From positions 1-64,000 of the IMG/VR virus record IMGVR_UViG_3300008267_000025: a stretch of 64,000 bases of DNA; one strand, given 5' to 3'. The position numbers and the translations under genes are program-made. This DNA is from a virus. A model generated the notes under the pieces. That model worked only from the letters and a program-made list of their open reading frames with translations, was not told the DNA's origin and made no database searches. Each line of letters begins with the position of its first letter. Position 1 is the stretch's first letter. Below are positions 24,065 through 52,692 of the stretch, in pieces.

Positions 24065-24139
24065 AGCGAGTCGGAGAAATGGTAACTCGTTGGGCTCATA
24101 ACCCAAAGATAAGTGGTTCGATTCCACTACTCGCAACCA
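24065..24139 (+). tRNA. tRNA-Met(CAT), probably initiator
   Basis: anticodon arm TTGGG-CTCATAA-CCCAA, mismatched 1:72 pair, encoded CCA. Confidence 0.9.
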
Positions 24140-24146
24140 AATATAT

Positions 24147-24218
24147 GCTCCCATAGTCTATCGGTTAGGACGCATCCCTTTCACGGATGAGAGACGAGTT
24201 CGATTCTCGTTGGGAGTA
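24147..24218 (+). tRNA. tRNA-Glu(TTC)
   Basis: cloverleaf; CATCC-CTTTCAC-GGATG. Confidence 0.9.
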
Positions 24219-24222
24219 CTTT

Positions 24223-24299
24223 AGTCAGGTAGCACATTGGAGATGCACGGTAAGGCGACCCCTTATGTGGATACGCAGGTTCGAATCCTGTCCTGGCTA
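24223..24299 (+). ncRNA. tRNA-like RNA 8 (tRNA-sized, abnormal anticodon loop)
   Basis: AGTCAGG/CCTGGCT acceptor and shared T arm; loop GCGACCC lacks U33. Confidence 0.65.
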
Positions 24300-24316
24300 C
24301 AAAAAAAATAAACGTT

Positions 24317-24484
24317 ATGGAAAAGACATTATTAAACATCTTACTCATCCCAACTATTGGGGGTACTATTATGACTCTATGTTCTCTTATACTTAATGAT
24401 TTTAACTTAACCATCAGTTCATTATCAATTACAGTATTCAGTTCTTCCATTTACTTAACAGGTTTATTAATGAAAAAATCATGA
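24317..24484 (+). CDS. small membrane protein (55 aa)
   Basis: MEKTLLNILLIPTIGG; read by hand; overlaps next ATG. Confidence 0.55.
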   Translation: MEKTLLNILLIPTIGGTIMTLCSLILNDFNLTISSLSITVFSSSIYLTGLLMKKS

Positions 24485-24675
24485 TACAAATCGACGATAT
24501 AATAAAATACGAAGAAGGTGATATGACAGAGATTGAAATGATTCACTTATTTAGTGGTCTAATCAAATCTAAACAAGCTTGGTCTCTCCAAGGTCACTAC
24601 GGAAGAACTGCAACTTCCCTCATCCAAAATAATATATTAGATATGGATGGGAATATATTAATCGATTTGGAATAA
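24481..24675 (+). CDS. hypothetical phage protein
   Basis: YEEG...LF..LI...AWSLQGHYGRTA motif. Confidence 0.75.
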   Translation: MIQIDDIIKYEEGDMTEIEMIHLFSGLIKSKQAWSLQGHYGRTATSLIQNNILDMDGNILIDLE

Positions 24676-24682
24676 TATGATT

Positions 24683-24754
24683 GGCCCCATAGTTAAACGG
24701 AGATAACGAATCTCTTCTAAAGATTAGTTCCTAGTTCGATTCTAGGTGGGGCTA
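24683..24754 (+). tRNA. tRNA-Arg(TCT)
   Basis: cloverleaf; AATCT-CTTCTAA-AGATT. Confidence 0.9.
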
Positions 24755-25351
24755 CTAATTATCCCTTTTTATATCTCTATTTATTTTACTACATAGTGGT
24801 TGTAAATTACTAAAATGATTTAATTTAATAACATCCTCTTCACTATTACACATTGAAAGAGGTTTGATGTGGTCAATATCCCAACCATAATTAAACTTCC
24901 CATTATATAATCCATAATTATCCCAACTCATCCACGATTCAAATTTAGATTCTATATATTCTTTTAACTCACCATAGGTACAACCTATAATATCATTCGT
25001 ACTTACTGATTTAGTTATAGACAATTTCTTTATTATTTGATTAATTCTTTTATAAATTAAGGTTTTCAACCTATAAATAGGGTCATTGATTAACTTATTT
25101 CTCCTATAGTTATTCTTACGTTCTTTTATAATATCTTTATTCTCCTGATAATACTCCGAATCCCTAACTTTCCTTATTTCTTTTGTCGATTCATAATACT
25201 TTTTATTATACTCCTTAGTACGATTCTTATGAGAATCGTTATTTACCCTCCAATTTTTTCTATACTCTTTCTTACATAGTTTACAGATATTACCACTCTT
25301 GGGAAACTCACTAAGTTCTTTATTTAAATCACATTTAATACACTCTTTCAT
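24755..25351 (-). CDS. HNH endonuclease (free-standing homing type)
   Basis: N-terminal CxxC pairs; WDIDHIKPLS...NHFSNLQPL..N. Confidence 0.85.
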   Translation of the reverse strand: MKECIKCDLNKELSEFPKSGNICKLCKKEYRKNWRVNNDSHKNRTKEYNKKYYESTKEIRKVRDSEYYQENKDIIKERKNNYRRNKLINDPIYRLKTLIYKRINQIIKKLSITKSVSTNDIIGCTYGELKEYIESKFESWMSWDNYGLYNGKFNYGWDIDHIKPLSMCNSEEDVIKLNHFSNLQPLCSKINRDIKRDN

Positions 25352-38628: not shown

Positions 38629-39085
38629 AACACAATATAATCGTTTACGTCAAACGATTGATGACTTATATGATAAGTTGAATCGTGGTGAAAAATTAAC
38701 ACCATATGATGAAATTAAATTTAAACGATTTTCAAAACATATTGAGAGAGGTGGTGATGAATCAGATTTTACTAATGATGAAATGGATTCAAACCCAAAT
38801 GAAGGGATGGTGTTCAATTATGAATTAAATGGTAAAACATTTAAATTCGTATTTTCAGAAATAATAACAAATGAAAATGATATTGAACTTTCAGGTGAAA
38901 TATTATATGATGGCGATAAATACCATGGTGTTATTGTAGTTGATAAATCAGGTTATTTAACAGATTTTGATTTTTATAATATCGATAATGTTGATAGTAA
39001 ATTACAAGACATTTTAAAAAATGATAAAACTTATTATGAAATTGAGAATTTCATAATTGAAGAAATTGTACCTAAACTATTATGA
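38609..39085 (+). CDS. leader-bearing hypothetical protein
   Basis: MKIILTETQYNRL. Confidence 0.75.
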   Translation: MKIILTETQYNRLRQTIDDLYDKLNRGEKLTPYDEIKFKRFSKHIERGGDESDFTNDEMDSNPNEGMVFNYELNGKTFKFVFSEIITNENDIELSGEILYDGDKYHGVIVVDKSGYLTDFDFYNIDNVDSKLQDILKNDKTYYEIENFIIEEIVPKLL

Positions 39086-40125
39086 ATACATCTGAAAAAT
39101 TAAAAAAATTAATAAATTCTTTAGGAATTCTAAATACAATACAACAATTTGGGGGATTTGATGAAGCCATTAAAATATTTTCTCGTTTTCCTGAATTAAA
39201 ACCATTGATTGATGAGAAATTAGGTGGTAAATCGTATTTTAATATAATACCTGACAGTACGGGTGTTATTCGGTCATTTTTTAATTTTATAATACGTGAT
39301 ATCGATATTGATTATGAGGATTTCATTACATTAAACGTTGATTTTTTAATTGACTTCAACAATTTATCAGAAGATGAAATTCAATTGTTGAAAGATTGGG
39401 TATATACACTTTGTTTAGACCTTGATTTTTATTATATAAAAACTAATGATAAACATTTTGAAGAAGGTCATGTTTCATTATATCCATATAGTTTTAATGG
39501 CGTTAAGTATAAACAAAATAGACTTAAAACTTACGATAATGATGAAAAAATATATAATATATTAACTAAGACAGGATTTTTTAATAAAAATATTAACGAA
39601 TCGATTCAATTTTTAAAAGAAAGTTCCATTTATAAAAAAGGTTATAGTCTTTCTCCAAGTTCTTGGTTGAAATCGTTTATAAAAACTGAGGAAGGCGATT
39701 CAGTTAATAAAGGTCAACCGATGTTAAATGCGTATGAAATTGCCGGTGATTTAACTATTGGATATGGTCACACAACAGGTGATGTTTTACCAACTGTCAC
39801 GTCAGGTATGAAAATAACTAAAAATCAAGCTGAAACAATATTAAATAATGATTTAAGTTATTCTGCGAATTGTGTTAGACGTATTTTTAAAGAATGGGAA
39901 GATAATGGAATTAATGTACCAATAACTCAAAATATGTTTGATGTGTTAGTATCATTAACATTTAATGCTGGATGTGGGTCGGTTAGAACTTCCGCCTTTA
40001 TTAAATCATTAAAACGAAAAAAATATAAAACAGCAGCTGAACAAATTAAAACATTTAATGTTAAATCAGGTTATAAAGGTCTAATTAATAGAAGACAACA
40101 AGAATCTGAAAAATTTATCTCTTAA
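39082..40125 (+). CDS. protein with C-terminal GH24 lysozyme domain
   Basis: IKTEEG, TIGYGHT, QNMFDVLVSLTFNAG, GLINRRQQE. Confidence 0.85.
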   Translation: MNTSEKLKKLINSLGILNTIQQFGGFDEAIKIFSRFPELKPLIDEKLGGKSYFNIIPDSTGVIRSFFNFIIRDIDIDYEDFITLNVDFLIDFNNLSEDEIQLLKDWVYTLCLDLDFYYIKTNDKHFEEGHVSLYPYSFNGVKYKQNRLKTYDNDEKIYNILTKTGFFNKNINESIQFLKESSIYKKGYSLSPSSWLKSFIKTEEGDSVNKGQPMLNAYEIAGDLTIGYGHTTGDVLPTVTSGMKITKNQAETILNNDLSYSANCVRRIFKEWEDNGINVPITQNMFDVLVSLTFNAGCGSVRTSAFIKSLKRKKYKTAAEQIKTFNVKSGYKGLINRRQQESEKFIS

Positions 40126-41016: not shown

Positions 41017-41397
41017 ATGTTTATAATAGGTTTAATATTGGTCTTATTATCAGGAATTGCTGAAGCGATTATGGATAAAATCCAATTTCATTTTGATAAA
41101 TCAATTTTTGTAAATTACAATCAAGACTTTTGGAATCCTACTTTATCTTGGAAAAATAAATGGAGGTCGGATTTGAAAACTGAGAAATTTATATGGTCAT
41201 CCAGTTTATTTGTTTTCGTAACAGACGGTTGGCATTTGTCTAAATTTTTTAGAAATCTATTTTTATTTGTCGGTATACCAATCGTCTGTTACTACTCAGA
41301 TAATATTATATTAAGTTGTATTATTTGTAGAATATGTTTCGGTATTAGTTTCACATTTTTTTTTAATGTGATTTTTAAGCGAAGTCATCAACATTAA
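41017..41397 (+). CDS. membrane protein
   Basis: hydrophobic; MDKIQFH, WKNKW, TDGWH. Confidence 0.7.
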   Translation: MFIIGLILVLLSGIAEAIMDKIQFHFDKSIFVNYNQDFWNPTLSWKNKWRSDLKTEKFIWSSSLFVFVTDGWHLSKFFRNLFLFVGIPIVCYYSDNIILSCIICRICFGISFTFFFNVIFKRSHQH

Positions 41398-42178
41398 ATG
41401 ATTTTGAAGCCGCTATTGCTTCATCACTACTAAACTTACTTTTACCGCCGGCGTTAATATTTGCGAAATATTCGGCAGCTTCTTCCTTAGAATTAAATTT
41501 AGGTAGGCTTGAAGCTGGTTTATCATTAGTTAAAAACTTAATAGCTATTTTTGCTGAAATTTCAGGTTTATTTACTAATTCAGGATTTGATATTAAATCA
41601 ACCCCTATCATATCTCCGTATTTTTTATAATTACCTCTACCTGTTAAACCATTCAAACCTCTTCCAATATATTTCCAACCATCACCAGGTTCGGTATTAC
41701 CTAAACGAATACCTGAATCTTTACCATAAACAGTTTCAAAAAATAATTTATCATCTTTTTTAATTGCTGTTAATTCTTCATCTGAAAATTTAGAAACACG
41801 ATTACCAAAAATACTTCTAATTCTTGAATTACTTGTATTAGAGTATGAAATTTCATTTTGAGGTTTAAAACCACTTTCTTTTTTAATGACTGATAAAATA
41901 CCAATTTGTTGTAATGGGTCTTTAATACCTTCATTCTTCATTTCATCTACAATATATTTAATCATTTCTTTTTCATTAGCGTTAAATGAACCAGTATTAA
42001 AATCGGTATCAATTTGAGATGGTTTATCTTTTAAGTGTTTTTTAGCAGAATCTATCACATTTTGTAAAAAATCAGTTTTATTTAAAACGATATCAGATAA
42101 TGAATCTGATTCATTTAAATTATACATACGTTTAATCTCATTTTTTTCAGACTCAGTTATTATTAATTTTTTTTTCAT
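41375..42178 (-). CDS. leader-bearing GH19 glycoside hydrolase (chitinase/endolysin-like)
   Basis: KESGF, GDGWKYIGRG...LTGRGNY. Confidence 0.85.
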   Translation of the reverse strand: MKKKLIITESEKNEIKRMYNLNESDSLSDIVLNKTDFLQNVIDSAKKHLKDKPSQIDTDFNTGSFNANEKEMIKYIVDEMKNEGIKDPLQQIGILSVIKKESGFKPQNEISYSNTSNSRIRSIFGNRVSKFSDEELTAIKKDDKLFFETVYGKDSGIRLGNTEPGDGWKYIGRGLNGLTGRGNYKKYGDMIGVDLISNPELVNKPEISAKIAIKFLTNDKPASSLPKFNSKEEAAEYFANINAGGKSKFSSDEAIAASKSFNVDDFA

Positions 42179-45041: not shown

Positions 45042-45257
45042 AGTTATGTTTAAAAAAATTAAAAAATGGTTTGACCTTAAATTTGGTTGGTTTTTTATAA
45101 ATGGTAGAAAACAAAATAAATGGATTGAGGTATTAAAAGACACCTACTCTGACGATAATAAAAGTCAAGAAATGTAATTACAATAACAACAAAGTAAACC
45201 CTTAAATTTAATTATTTAAGGGTTTTTTATTTTTAAGATATTTATAGTAAAACTATT

Positions 45258-47021
45258 ATGCCAATTTTTAGTAAAACTTCAAAATATTGTTTTTACATAA
45301 CAGTTATGATTATGTTTATTTTTTTGGGTATCAAAACATTGGTGGTATTTGAATTAATACATTTTTCATCTAAAATTAAATGGGTGGAATTTTTTTGTAT
45401 TTCATTCTTTGTACCATTTTTTCTTATATTAATGAGAGAATATTATAATAAGAATAAAGAGTCTGTTAAGTTAAATCAATATTCAAAGTTATTAAATGAA
45501 ACATTAATTAGATTGACCCATCATAATTTATTTTACGATGGAAAATTAGTTGAGGGCGGGAAATTACTAACTAAAGAAGTTACTAAAACATTATCAGTTG
45601 ATAGATGTTCTATATGGTTATATAACGATAAAAATACCTCTATAATATGTTCTCAATTATATGATATAACAACTAATACATGGAGTAATGGGTTTGAATT
45701 ATATGAGAAGGATTATAAACCTTACTTCGATGATTTAAGAAAAAATGGGATAATATCGGCTAATGATGTTACTACTCATCCGGCAACTATCTGTTTCAAC
45801 GAAACGTACACAAATCCGTTAGGGATTAAATCAATTTTAGACGTTCCTATCATTTATAAGGGAACTATGATAGGTGTTATATGTATTGAAAGTTTGAAAT
45901 TAAGAGAATGGAATAAAATCGAAATAAATTTCACCGAAATGTTATCATCATTATTTTCATTTACGTATTCAGTTAAAGAAACTAATGATATTAAAAATGA
46001 ACTATCTGAATTTGAGAATTTTGTCAATAAGTCAGTATTAGTAAGTAAAACCGATAAAAGAGGTAGAATTACATATGTTAACGATAAGTTCCAAGAAGTC
46101 TCAGGATATAGTTTTGAAGAAACTATTGGTAAAGACCATAATATTATTAATTCAGGTGTACACACTTCTAAATTTTGGAAAAATATGTATAAAACCGTTA
46201 AAAACGGTGAGATTTGGAATGATTTAGTAACTAATAAACGTAAAAATGGTGAATTATATTGGGTTGATACCTATATCAAAGGTGTATTTAAAAACAATCG
46301 TTTAATTGGGTATTTGTCAATTAGACAAGATGTTACTGATTTATATAAAAATATTAATGAGATTAGTAAAAAGAACACCTATTTAGAACACGCCTCGAAG
46401 ATTTTAAGACACGATATGCACTCAGGTATAAACACATATATCCCAAGAGGTTTAAGTTCGTTAGAACGAAGATTATCCCCCGAAGATATAGAAAGATTAA
46501 AACTTGAGATTCCAATAAGATTGTTAAAAGAAGGGTTAAAACATACTCAAAAAGTTTATAAAGGTGTCTACGAATTTACTAATTTAGTAAAACATGATTC
46601 TGATTTATCTAAAGAAAAATTTAATCTAAAGGAAATCCTAACATCTTTTTTATCATCCACCGCTTATTCAAGTCAGGTATCTATTGGTACATTACCTACT
46701 ATTGAAGTTAATGAATCTTTATTTTGTACGGCAATAGATAACTTAATTCGTAATGGTTTACGATATAATGATTCTGAAAGTAAAATCGTTAAAATATATA
46801 TGGATGACGATAATCATTTAACTATTCAAGATAATGGTCGAGGTATGACACAAGAAGAATTTGAAATATACTCAAAACCGTATAATAGAAAACCAAATCA
46901 AAAGGAATCCGGTACAGGTTTAGGTTTAAACATATGTATAGCAATTTTAAATGAACATGGGTTTACCATTACTTGTGAAAAAAATGAAATTGGAACTAAA
47001 TTAAAAATTAAAATAAAATAA
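45258..47021 (+). CDS. membrane sensor histidine kinase (2TM-GAF-PAS-HisKA-HATPase)
   Basis: GAF DRCSIWL/ILDVPI; PAS ITYVND.F...SGY, NKRKNGELYWVD; H-box LRHDM; NLIRNG, DNGRGM, GTGLGL. Confidence 0.9.
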   Translation: MPIFSKTSKYCFYITVMIMFIFLGIKTLVVFELIHFSSKIKWVEFFCISFFVPFFLILMREYYNKNKESVKLNQYSKLLNETLIRLTHHNLFYDGKLVEGGKLLTKEVTKTLSVDRCSIWLYNDKNTSIICSQLYDITTNTWSNGFELYEKDYKPYFDDLRKNGIISANDVTTHPATICFNETYTNPLGIKSILDVPIIYKGTMIGVICIESLKLREWNKIEINFTEMLSSLFSFTYSVKETNDIKNELSEFENFVNKSVLVSKTDKRGRITYVNDKFQEVSGYSFEETIGKDHNIINSGVHTSKFWKNMYKTVKNGEIWNDLVTNKRKNGELYWVDTYIKGVFKNNRLIGYLSIRQDVTDLYKNINEISKKNTYLEHASKILRHDMHSGINTYIPRGLSSLERRLSPEDIERLKLEIPIRLLKEGLKHTQKVYKGVYEFTNLVKHDSDLSKEKFNLKEILTSFLSSTAYSSQVSIGTLPTIEVNESLFCTAIDNLIRNGLRYNDSESKIVKIYMDDDNHLTIQDNGRGMTQEEFEIYSKPYNRKPNQKESGTGLGLNICIAILNEHGFTITCEKNEIGTKLKIKIK

Positions 47022-47022
47022 T

Positions 47023-47997
47023 ATGAATAAAAAATTTAGAGTACTATCAATTGATGGTGGAGGATTAAGAGGTATTGTACCATTAATGATACTGAAAAGA
47101 ATTGAAGAAATGTCAGGTAAACAAATATACGAATTATTTGACTTGATAGTTGGTACATCAACAGGAGGAATAATAGCATGTGGTTTAACAGCTACTAAAG
47201 ATGGTGAAACACCTTTTTTAAGGGTTGATAAATTAATTGAATTATACACAACAAAAGGTAAAAATATTTTCCCTAAGAAAGAAAACTTATTAACTAAGTT
47301 TAATTCATTAATTAATCCTAAATTTAGTGATAAAGGTTTGGATAAAGAATTAAAAGAATATTTTGAAGATATAACATTAAGTCAGACTTTGAAACCGATT
47401 ATTGTAACATCATACGATATCAATAATAATGAACCTTTAATTTTTAAAAGTAGGAAATCAGTTGAAGTAGGTTATGATATAAAGTTAAAGGATGTATGTC
47501 GAGCAACATCAGCAGCACCAACTTATTTACCATCATATGAGTTAAATTATGCCGGTAAAAAAAGAATTTGTATTGATGGTGGCGTTTATGTTAACAATCC
47601 TGTTATGGTTGCTATTTCAGATATTATCAGAAATAAATACGGAGTTGAAGGTATTCAATTAAGTGATATAACTGTTTTGTCATTAGGTACAGGTGTATAT
47701 ACAGAAAATTTAGGAATTAAAAAAACACCTAGCTGGGGATTACTTAACTGGGCCAAGCCAATAACTGATTTAATGATGCAAGCCGTTTCAAAATCAGTTC
47801 ATTATGAATGTAATGAATTATTGAATAACTATTTAAGACTTCAAATAGATATTGATAAAAAAGAAATGAGCGATATGGCAGATTCTAGTCTAGAAACAAA
47901 TATTTATATAAAAGAAAAAGTAAATAGTAAAATATTAAATAATCCAGAAGAAATGTATAAATTACAAGAATTCTTCAAACAAAATATACAAAATTAA
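47023..47997 (+). CDS. patatin-like phospholipase
   Basis: DGGGLRG, GTSTGG, ATSAAPTY, DGGVYVNNP. Confidence 0.9.
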   Translation: MNKKFRVLSIDGGGLRGIVPLMILKRIEEMSGKQIYELFDLIVGTSTGGIIACGLTATKDGETPFLRVDKLIELYTTKGKNIFPKKENLLTKFNSLINPKFSDKGLDKELKEYFEDITLSQTLKPIIVTSYDINNNEPLIFKSRKSVEVGYDIKLKDVCRATSAAPTYLPSYELNYAGKKRICIDGGVYVNNPVMVAISDIIRNKYGVEGIQLSDITVLSLGTGVYTENLGIKKTPSWGLLNWAKPITDLMMQAVSKSVHYECNELLNNYLRLQIDIDKKEMSDMADSSLETNIYIKEKVNSKILNNPEEMYKLQEFFKQNIQN

Positions 47998-47998
47998 T

Positions 47999-48436
47999 AT
48001 GATAGAATCAATATTATTAGTGGATGATGAAGATTTATTCCATTTGGTTTTTGAAGACGCATGTTCTTTATTAGACATTAGTTTATCTCTAAAATCAGTT
48101 AAAAGTGCAGATGAAGCTGCCAAAATGTTCAAAAAATGGTTTGAATCCGGTAATAAAAAAGAAAAACCTGAATGTGTATTCGTTGATTTAAACATCATAG
48201 GTTCATCATTTGATGGCATAGAATTAGTTAGAAAAATTAATTTTGAATATGGTAATCATGTTATTATCGGTATAATTTCTTCCTCCAACGAATCATCTGA
48301 ACAACATAAAGCTCTTGATGCCGGTGCACAATTTTGGTTAGTTAAATCAGATGAAATTGAGCCGAGATTAGAAGAATTTAAAAAAGATTATCCTGGTTAT
48401 AAAAATAAAACGTTACCATTTAAAGTTTACAAATGA
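47999..48436 (+). CDS. single-domain response regulator (receiver only)
   Basis: LLVDDE, FVDLN, ISSS, LVKS. Confidence 0.9.
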   Translation: MIESILLVDDEDLFHLVFEDACSLLDISLSLKSVKSADEAAKMFKKWFESGNKKEKPECVFVDLNIIGSSFDGIELVRKINFEYGNHVIIGIISSSNESSEQHKALDAGAQFWLVKSDEIEPRLEEFKKDYPGYKNKTLPFKVYK

Positions 48437-49110
48437 TTAATTTTAGTCCTGAAACCAAAAAACAATTAATTGACTTATATCATGAAAAAAGTATAGGTTT
48501 AGAAGGTAATATATTAAAATTAATCAATACTGAAAATGATAAAGATTTTTCAAAATACATTAAAAAATGTATTGATAATGATAAATCTAACCGAAGAAAA
48601 AGACTTGATGTAACAAAAAAAATACAAAGTCAGAATAATGAATTGATTTCATTAAATGATGAAAATAAACGTATTCTTGATGAACTACAAGTAAGTCTGA
48701 CTAATACCGAAAATTCTAAAACTCAAATTGAAGAACAAAATAACGAATTATTGTCTTGGAAAGAAAAAAATGAACAAATTCAAAACGAGTTACAAGAAGA
48801 AATGAAGAAATCTGAAATTGCTCGTTCTGAAGCCGAAAACTCTAAAGAAATCGCATTAAATAATTTAGATGTTTTACAGAAAAAAATTCAAACTCAACTA
48901 ATGGGTAAAATAGTTTTAGTAGCGTTAGGGGTTATTGGGTTTGTCGGATTAACAACTACCATATTATATGTTATTTCAATAGTTTTGGGAAAAGAAACTG
49001 AAAATATCGGAACCGCTTGGTTCAATATATGTGGGATTTTATTAACTAACGCTTTTAGTATTGTTGGTACTATTATGGGTGTTAAGTATAGTAGTAACGA
49101 GAAACCATAA
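48433..49110 (+). CDS. coiled-coil protein with two C-terminal TM helices
   Basis: long heptad region then two hydrophobic segments; ATGA overlap with regulator. Confidence 0.8.
   Translation: MINFSPETKKQLIDLYHEKSIGLEGNILKLINTENDKDFSKYIKKCIDNDKSNRRKRLDVTKKIQSQNNELISLNDENKRILDELQVSLTNTENSKTQIEEQNNELLSWKEKNEQIQNELQEEMKKSEIARSEAENSKEIALNNLDVLQKKIQTQLMGKIVLVALGVIGFVGLTTTILYVISIVLGKETENIGTAWFNICGILLTNAFSIVGTIMGVKYSSNEKP

Positions 49111-49380: not shown

Positions 49381-52692
<3,312 letters not shown>

Follow-up and report, generated by a model that had tools for sequence, protein, structure and literature searches.

A candidate phospho-relay for lysis timing in large phages and its accessory patatin-like phospholipase

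Introduction

Signal-dependent timing of phage lysis has been worked out for the lysis inhibition of T-even phages (PMC11413866) and was later described in phage ICP1 (PMC7182436). In T4, lysis inhibition involves the holin T together with the antiholins RI and RIII (PMC11413866), and the TeaA/ArrA pair of ICP1 is analogous to this system (PMC7182436). In staphylococci, the LytSR two-component system goes with the holin-like proteins CidAB and LrgAB (PMC2996381). Here we describe a four-gene operon, at positions 45258-49110 of the IMG/VR virus record IMGVR_UViG_3300008267_000025, that encodes a sensor histidine kinase, a patatin-like phospholipase, a stand-alone receiver and a coiled-coil membrane protein ending in a two-transmembrane hairpin (hereafter the hairpin protein). 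The record is a contig of 77.7 kb with a CheckV completeness of 26%, and the window, meaning the whole stretch of DNA that was analysed, is its first 64 kb.

The module carried by this operon would resemble the T4 and ICP1 systems in adjusting the time of lysis to a signal through a membrane holin that is controlled at the protein level, and in having its genes with the lysis genes; it has, however, no sequence or fold relation to them. T4 senses superinfection through a periplasmic antiholin, whereas the module of the window would use cytoplasmic GAF and PAS domains, which either signal by way of a kinase and receiver or are joined directly to the membrane hairpin. Lysis inhibition has been worked out in T4 and described in ICP1, while the relay of the window is known from sequence alone. 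The likeness to LytSR lies in a two-component system tied to holin-/antiholin-like membrane proteins and to murein hydrolase activity. LytSR is cellular and transcriptional, working through a DNA-binding (LytTR) regulator, whereas the receiver of the phage lacks an output domain and is partnered by a membrane protein whose gene overlaps its own. The T4, ICP1 and LytSR systems are all unrelated in sequence to the module, and in none of them does a kinase-receiver pair carried by a phage act on a membrane protein. The only receiver mentioned in a review of jumbo phages is divergent and never linked to histidine kinases (PMC7824862), and our full-text literature searches brought up no publication in which a kinase-receiver pair of a phage is tied to holins or to lysis timing. 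This agrees with an earlier reading of the same DNA made from its letters (the sequence-only reading), which was aware of no such system characterised in phages.

Patatin-like phospholipases have been noted in megaphages (PMC9723777, with LR745206). The patatins of LR745206 and of the Wolbachia phage WO are 32-36% identical to that of the window, and in the reports on them the gene is not described as part of a two-component operon; the clade of the window patatin, with 56-84% identity to the window protein, is confined to uncultured large phages. The window patatin shares the patatin fold, the Ser-Asp dyad and the GGGxRG oxyanion loop with the CapV/CapE lipases and with Pat17 (Protein Data Bank (PDB) entries 8zr9, 9ion and 1oxw), its template modelling score (TM-score) being 0.83 to Pat17 and 0.79-0.80 to AbCapV. 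It differs from the lipases of the cyclic-oligonucleotide-based antiphage signalling systems (CBASS) in scoring below the CBASS_lipase cut-off, in having no cyclase partner that we could find, and in being a single gene present in varied contexts.

Results

The unit conserved among relatives

Four intact and tightly packed open reading frames (ORFs) occupy the plus strand of the window between positions 45258 and 49110:

45258..47021, plus strand: sensor histidine kinase of 587 amino acids (aa), with two transmembrane segments, GAF, PAS, a divergent His-box helix (RHDMH) and HATPase_c
47023..47997, plus strand: patatin-like phospholipase of 324 aa, with the motifs GGGLRG, GTSTG and DGG; lineage-specific insertion between kinase and receiver
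47999..48436, plus strand: stand-alone CheY-like receiver of 145 aa (Response_reg, 3.5e-10), the most conserved gene of the unit
48433..49110, plus strand: virus-only membrane protein of 225 aa, with an N-domain (residues 1-70), a coiled coil of variable length and a two-transmembrane hairpin; candidate holin-/antiholin-like output

Read directly, the junctions on both sides of the patatin gene are TAA-T-ATG, that is 1-nt spacers, and the receiver and hairpin-protein genes share an ATGA overlap. The ORFs, the junctions and the hairpin that precedes them (see below) are as the sequence-only reading had given them, namely a four-gene operon with spacers of 1 nt and 1 nt and an ATGA overlap, placed after a terminator and a short motif.

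By blastn, the four-gene block had no match in a GenBank phage. Single-protein scans with the patatin or the kinase gave no viral-contig match, and alignments had to be used as queries. Relatives of the receiver proved to be encoded on more than 500 viral contigs, with 3869 matching clusters in a large protein collection, and the synteny survey was made on the 80 loci that are closest to the window by receiver identity (77-88% identical). In these loci the gene of the hairpin protein always follows that of the receiver, with the 4-nt ATGA overlap in 69 of 79 and a spacer that never exceeds 6 nt. The kinase gene ends at most 50 nt upstream of the receiver gene in 67 of 73 loci. Six of the 80 loci, near-identical contigs of one lineage, have a patatin gene between kinase and receiver, and their patatin is 66% identical to that of the window; the kinase-receiver-hairpin arrangement is found without patatin in the other 74, among them L167, whose receiver is closest to that of the window (88%). 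Near-complete relatives are 274-304 kb long (93-100% complete), and the two searched for a terminase large subunit, G006 and G007, both carry it. No match to the patatin was found anywhere in G006, G007 and G008 (93-100% complete). The receiver itself is conserved alike with or without the patatin (86-88% in both L167 and L169).

On this synteny, the conserved unit is made of the kinase, the receiver and the hairpin protein, and the patatin is not part of it. The sequence-only reading had wired the two-component genes to the patatin, a view that its absence from 74 of the 80 closest loci and from three relatives that are 93-100% complete does not bear out; nor is the patatin always found between kinase and receiver, a place it takes in a single lineage.

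A two-component pair without DNA-binding output

The kinase was matched by the Pfam families GAF (6.7e-13), PAS_9 (2.7e-12) and HATPase_c (5.8e-15), and hydropathy places two transmembrane segments at its N-terminus. The Pfam HisKA family gave no match on this protein, meaning that its His helix is divergent. Comparison of 35 phage kinases showed that R384-H385-D386-M387-H388, N495/N499, D525-N-G-x-G529, F535 and G554-L-G-L are invariant. The transmitter half is nearly invariant as a whole, while the sensor half varies, with a GAF domain in 19 and a PAS domain in 30 of the 35 proteins and total lengths of 375-743 aa. As for the receiver, all of 16 sequences share residues D9, D10, D63, S94-S96 and K116. 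It carries no second domain according to Pfam, and its NCBIfam matches are limited to the receiver part. Measured against the L169 orthologues, its ratio of nonsynonymous to synonymous substitution rates (dN/dS) is 0.045, compared with 0.17-0.20 for its three neighbour genes.

Kinase and receiver between them hold the motifs by which two-component proteins are recognised, namely the His helix, the N, G1, F and G2 boxes of HATPase_c, the acidic pair and the Asp, Ser and Lys residues, and by prediction they make up a two-component unit that is encoded by the phage and has no DNA-binding output. The sequence-only reading was right in that the catalytic motifs, invariant in relatives, are intact, and in that the receiver, having no second domain, has no DNA-binding output. 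We infer that the kinase pairs with the receiver from their adjacency (at most 50 nt in 67/73 loci) and their joint conservation.

Two tandem kinase genes with differing sensor parts precede a single receiver gene in L185, L192, L195-L197, L211, L217, L222, L224 and L225, which suggests that several inputs converge on one relay. An orphan kinase of 495 aa is also encoded in the 281-kb record G001 (L166:8870-10357, minus strand). It has the same transmitter core, with 59% identity over residues 360-587, has neither GAF nor PAS, and lies about 100 kb from the patatin of that phage; no receiver match was found in the G001 genome.

The hairpin protein and its domain swaps

The hairpin protein has no Pfam family and no sequence match in the PDB. 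Hydropathy indicates two C-terminal transmembrane segments followed by a short charged tail. An alignment of 36 diverse orthologues showed conservation of residues 1-70, including a LEGN turn that is invariant, a coiled coil that varies in length in blocks of about 35 residues, and a second transmembrane segment that is almost invariant and rich in small polar residues. In the AlphaFold2 model (predicted local distance difference test (pLDDT) score of 85), a small N-domain is followed by a single helix, about 150 residues long and entering the membrane, and then by a return helix. Within the ESM Atlas the family is confined to viruses, and a profile search among 1.8 billion proteins gave 268 representatives at 50% identity. 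The synteny described above supports the hairpin protein as a constant and, by prediction, translationally coupled neighbour of the receiver.

Some of the representatives carry a GAF domain, or one or two PAS domains, joined to the coiled coil and hairpin; in L405-L407 the fused GAF domain shares 49-54% identity with the window kinase (residues 74-251). There was no kinase or receiver within 5 kb of these sensor-hairpin fusions, and no receiver match in four 100%-complete genomes of 120-182 kb that carry them. The reverse swap also occurs, the N-domain and a short coiled coil being fused to a HisKA-HATPase kinase. For the latter fusions one metagenome-contig locus was usable (L325, a short contig): it encodes the C-terminus of a kinase, an orthologue of the receiver, and then, overlapping, an N-domain protein that ends in a HisKA kinase and has no hairpin. 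Because of these swaps and of the L325 arrangement, the data say that the N-domain would be the input that goes with the receiver, and the coiled-coil hairpin the output, driven by the relay or directly by a sensor.

The database protein P0320 (348 aa) joins the N-domain of the hairpin protein (residues 7-97) to a FecCD-type ABC permease and is either a real fusion or an artefact of gene calling. A sample of 401 Bacteroidota genomes, searched with one query, gave no match to the N-domain, and a search of five Bacteroidota genomes with P0375 returned ordinary kinase cores only. Two assignments were examined and dropped. A weak NCBIfam match of the hairpin protein to ExbB (E 0.002) is unsupported by any other result. 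A ribbon-helix-helix fold for the N-domain, proposed from its strand, helix and LEGN turn, was set aside, as the same domain is the N-terminal input module of soluble HisKA kinases.

Endolysin genes around the module

We then counted endolysin-like genes around the module with five endolysin query proteins and a threshold of 1.5 kb. Such a gene was found within this distance in 64 of 83 one-component (fusion) loci (46/60 distinct sequences) and in 53 of 78 two-component loci (35/54 distinct). It lies directly downstream and on the same strand in 19 one-component and 32 two-component loci. Three classes of endolysin (GH19, lysozyme including the T4 type, and M15) alternate at this place, and the adjacency stays. 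In L524, a complete 123-kb phage, a PAS fusion is followed by an ORF of about 90 aa with two transmembrane segments and a charged tail, and then by Phage_lysozyme (3e-43) and Peptidase_M15 (2e-21) matches. A GH19 protein follows the sensor-hairpin fusion in L406, and the neighbour in L484 is a coiled-coil protein with one transmembrane segment.

The window holds two endolysin-like genes:

41375..42178, minus strand: GH19-type endolysin-like gene, the nearest homologue of the module-flanking endolysins of relatives
39082..40125, plus strand: second endolysin-like gene, with a lysozyme-type C-terminal domain

An ORF of 126 aa at 41017-41397 (plus strand) has three hydrophobic segments, and its 3' end overlaps that of the GH19-type gene on the opposite strand; its product is possibly a holin or another lysis membrane protein.

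The patatin

The window patatin was matched by Pfam (PF01734, 4.5e-26), and its GGGLRG, GTSTG and DGG motifs are invariant in 28 relatives. Its structural model (pLDDT 86.7) gave TM-scores of 0.83-0.84 to 1oxw and 4pkb. The nearest patatins are 56-84% identical (84% for P0006) and all come from uncultured material and viral contigs, while the nearest cellular ones, from metagenome-assembled genomes of Bacteroidota, reach 49% identity. Maximum-likelihood phylogeny separates the phage patatins from the cellular ones as a single clade with 100/100 support. Inside this phage-only clade the window patatin and that of L003/L007, both embedded between kinase and receiver, are not grouped together; the patatin of the L003/L007 lineage is sister to that of L006, which adjoins a T4-type lysozyme gene. 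Other members of the clade stand in unrelated contexts, in phages of 270-281 kb without receiver, one of which has an orphan kinase 100 kb away. Outside the operon the link of the patatin to lysis genes is weak, being seen in L006 only and not in L008-L018. The guanine-plus-cytosine (GC) content of the gene is 27.1%, compared with 27.8% for the window, which stays near 27% all along, and its dN/dS of about 0.2 indicates purifying selection.

Because of its phage-only clade, its varied contexts, its window-like composition and the purifying selection on it, the patatin is in all appearance a working, mobile phage gene that entered the operon, and is not a conserved part of the circuit. A recent, unexpressed capture from the host, which the sequence-only reading had named as what would refute it, was rejected on account of the phage-specific clade, the GC content and the purifying selection. 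The sequence TAATATG (stop, one T, start) is present at both borders of the gene (47019-47025 and 47995-48001) and may be a trace of the patatin slotting into the kinase-receiver junction.

In sequence and in predicted structure the patatin is about equally close to the constitutive potato patatin and to the nucleotide-gated CapV/CapE lipases. It scored 196.4 bits against NCBIfam CBASS_lipase (NF041079), below the curated cut-off of 200, and matched the PADLOC model PDLC00758 at 1.2e-75. There was no SMODS cyclase match in the 77.7-kb record, which is 26% complete, and the neighbours in the operon are the kinase and the receiver. Our guess is that the patatin is a co-expressed lipase that aids membrane breakdown at lysis; control of the patatin by the receiver is possible and found no support.

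Upstream elements and neighbouring genes

Two elements precede the kinase gene:

45196..45225, plus strand: terminator-like hairpin with a 12-bp stem and a T run, which closes the upstream unit
45239..45246, plus strand: TATTTATA motif, 11 nt ahead of the kinase ATG

Copies of TATTTATA occur in the window at chance level (36 versus 32 +/- 6). Despite this count, the motif is probably a promoter element of the phage, because 15 of the 36 copies lie at most 40 nt upstream of a gene-like start on the same strand, compared with 3.6% of positions. For control words of the same composition at most 16% of copies are near gene-like starts, except for words that overlap the motif. The latter can be written (A)TATTTAT(A), with examples at positions 1807, 4571, 26432, 27392, 42202, 45239, 60285 and 61565.

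Downstream of the operon, an Hsp70/DnaK gene (49387-52692) is split into an N-part (49387-49995) and a C-part (51535-52692). An ORF of 362 aa (50271-51359) with a weak match to a TnsA-like endonuclease lies between the two parts; relatives have a single uninterrupted gene for a protein of 619-627 aa at the same place. The window also contains four tRNA genes, a cluster of Met, Glu and Arg (24065-24755) and a Ser gene near its start (660-748).

Discussion

On balance we lean, if only slightly, towards a phage phospho-relay that would gate a holin-/antiholin-like protein for the timing of lysis, with the patatin as a co-expressed accessory. With its GAF and PAS domains the membrane kinase would sense a signal in the cytoplasm and, as its intact motifs suggest, phosphorylate the stand-alone receiver. 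From the synteny and the domain swaps, the receiver would then act on the N-domain of the hairpin protein translated from the overlapping gene, and the long coiled coil would relay the signal to the conserved two-transmembrane hairpin in the inner membrane. As a probable part of the lysis cassette this hairpin would be a regulated holin, or an antiholin that restrains a separate small holin, and the state of the infected cell would determine when the host bursts. In one small branch the patatin gene would have entered exactly at the kinase-receiver junction, and would thus be expressed together with the lysis-control genes. A fuller version of this proposal is held more tentatively, as a possibility that falls somewhat short of even: in large phages the relay would gate a new holin-/antiholin-like hairpin post-translationally, so that lysis follows a metabolite or redox signal of the host, smaller phages would use the sensor-hairpin fusion, and the branch of the window would have added the phospholipase as a lysis tool.

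Several observations weigh against the relay as a lysis timer. The endolysin gene of the window nearest to the kinase (41375-42178) is 3.1 kb upstream of it and not adjacent, so that for this phage the link to lysis rests on relatives and not on direct adjacency; with the five queries, no endolysin was found in 22 of 78 two-component and 19 of 83 one-component loci. A small ORF resembling a class II holin is present in many cassettes, with holin and antiholin indistinguishable, and this favours the role of a regulator for the hairpin protein; no homologue of this ORF was found in the record of the window (26% complete). With 225 aa and a cytoplasmic part of about 150 aa, the hairpin protein is unlike the known small holins, and fold searches gave generic helical hairpins only (Foldseek E >=3; VIA-align Z <=8.8, which is below the meaningful level for helical proteins). 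The synteny survey covers the 80 loci nearest to the window by receiver identity, and the 1-nt spacers around the patatin leave room for a functional tie in its lineage. Some of these points would also fit a relay and hairpin that act on the physiology of the host membrane (proton-motive force, transport or superinfection exclusion), the vicinity of endolysins then reflecting shared late expression. The near-invariant second transmembrane segment with its small polar residues, as for a channel or a specific intramembrane contact, speaks for such a function, together with the quarter or so of loci that have no endolysin nearby, the 3 kb that separate module and endolysin in the window, and the separate small holin-like ORF. 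We nevertheless consider it unlikely, as the adjacency outlasts changes of endolysin class and of one- or two-component control, a pattern typical of functional linkage, and as, by our estimate, chance alone would account for such a 3-kb neighbourhood in a few percent of cases, given a genome of about 270 kb.

The two other explanations centre on the patatin. In one of them the phosphorylated receiver would switch on the patatin as a membrane-destroying effector, which the coiled-coil membrane protein would only localise. The gene is set between kinase and receiver with 1-nt spacers, and with overlaps in the L003 lineage, and so is co-transcribed; the protein matches models of defence-effector lipases strongly (PDLC00758, 1.2e-75; CBASS_lipase, 196.4 bits), and, going by the titles of their entries, the solved CapV/CapE lipases are ligand-gated, so patatins of that group can be switchable. 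Such wiring is nonetheless improbable in view of the 74 operons out of 80 and the three near-complete relatives that do without a patatin, of the equal conservation of the receiver in either case (L167 and L169, 86-88%), of the patatins of the same clade that occur in phages without kinase or receiver, and of the separate positions that the two embedded patatins (window and L003/L007) take in the tree. Slightly less probable still, in our opinion, is a patatin that serves as a defence or competition effector of the CapV kind of CBASS, one that responds to a cyclic nucleotide and has nothing to do with the two-component genes. Its score just below the CBASS_lipase cut-off (196.4 versus 200 bits) and its structural match to AbCapV (TM-score 0.79-0.80) would agree with this, but no SMODS cyclase was found in the 77.7-kb record (26% complete), the best match in sequence and in structure is the constitutive potato patatin, and the gene is a single-gene insertion without partner genes.

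Of the sense-and-respond circuit that the sequence-only reading had put forward, lysis timing fits the synteny with endolysins, and the wiring to the patatin is the part left unsupported. For this window the picture needs correcting, in that the operon carries the lipase as an optional passenger and the circuit does not centre on it. If the relay does govern a protein of the holin type, many large phages of the environment would sense the state of the host cell with sensor domains of the bacterial type, the decision to burst would be taken by protein phosphorylation and not by transcription, and the hairpin would represent a new, modular membrane output domain.

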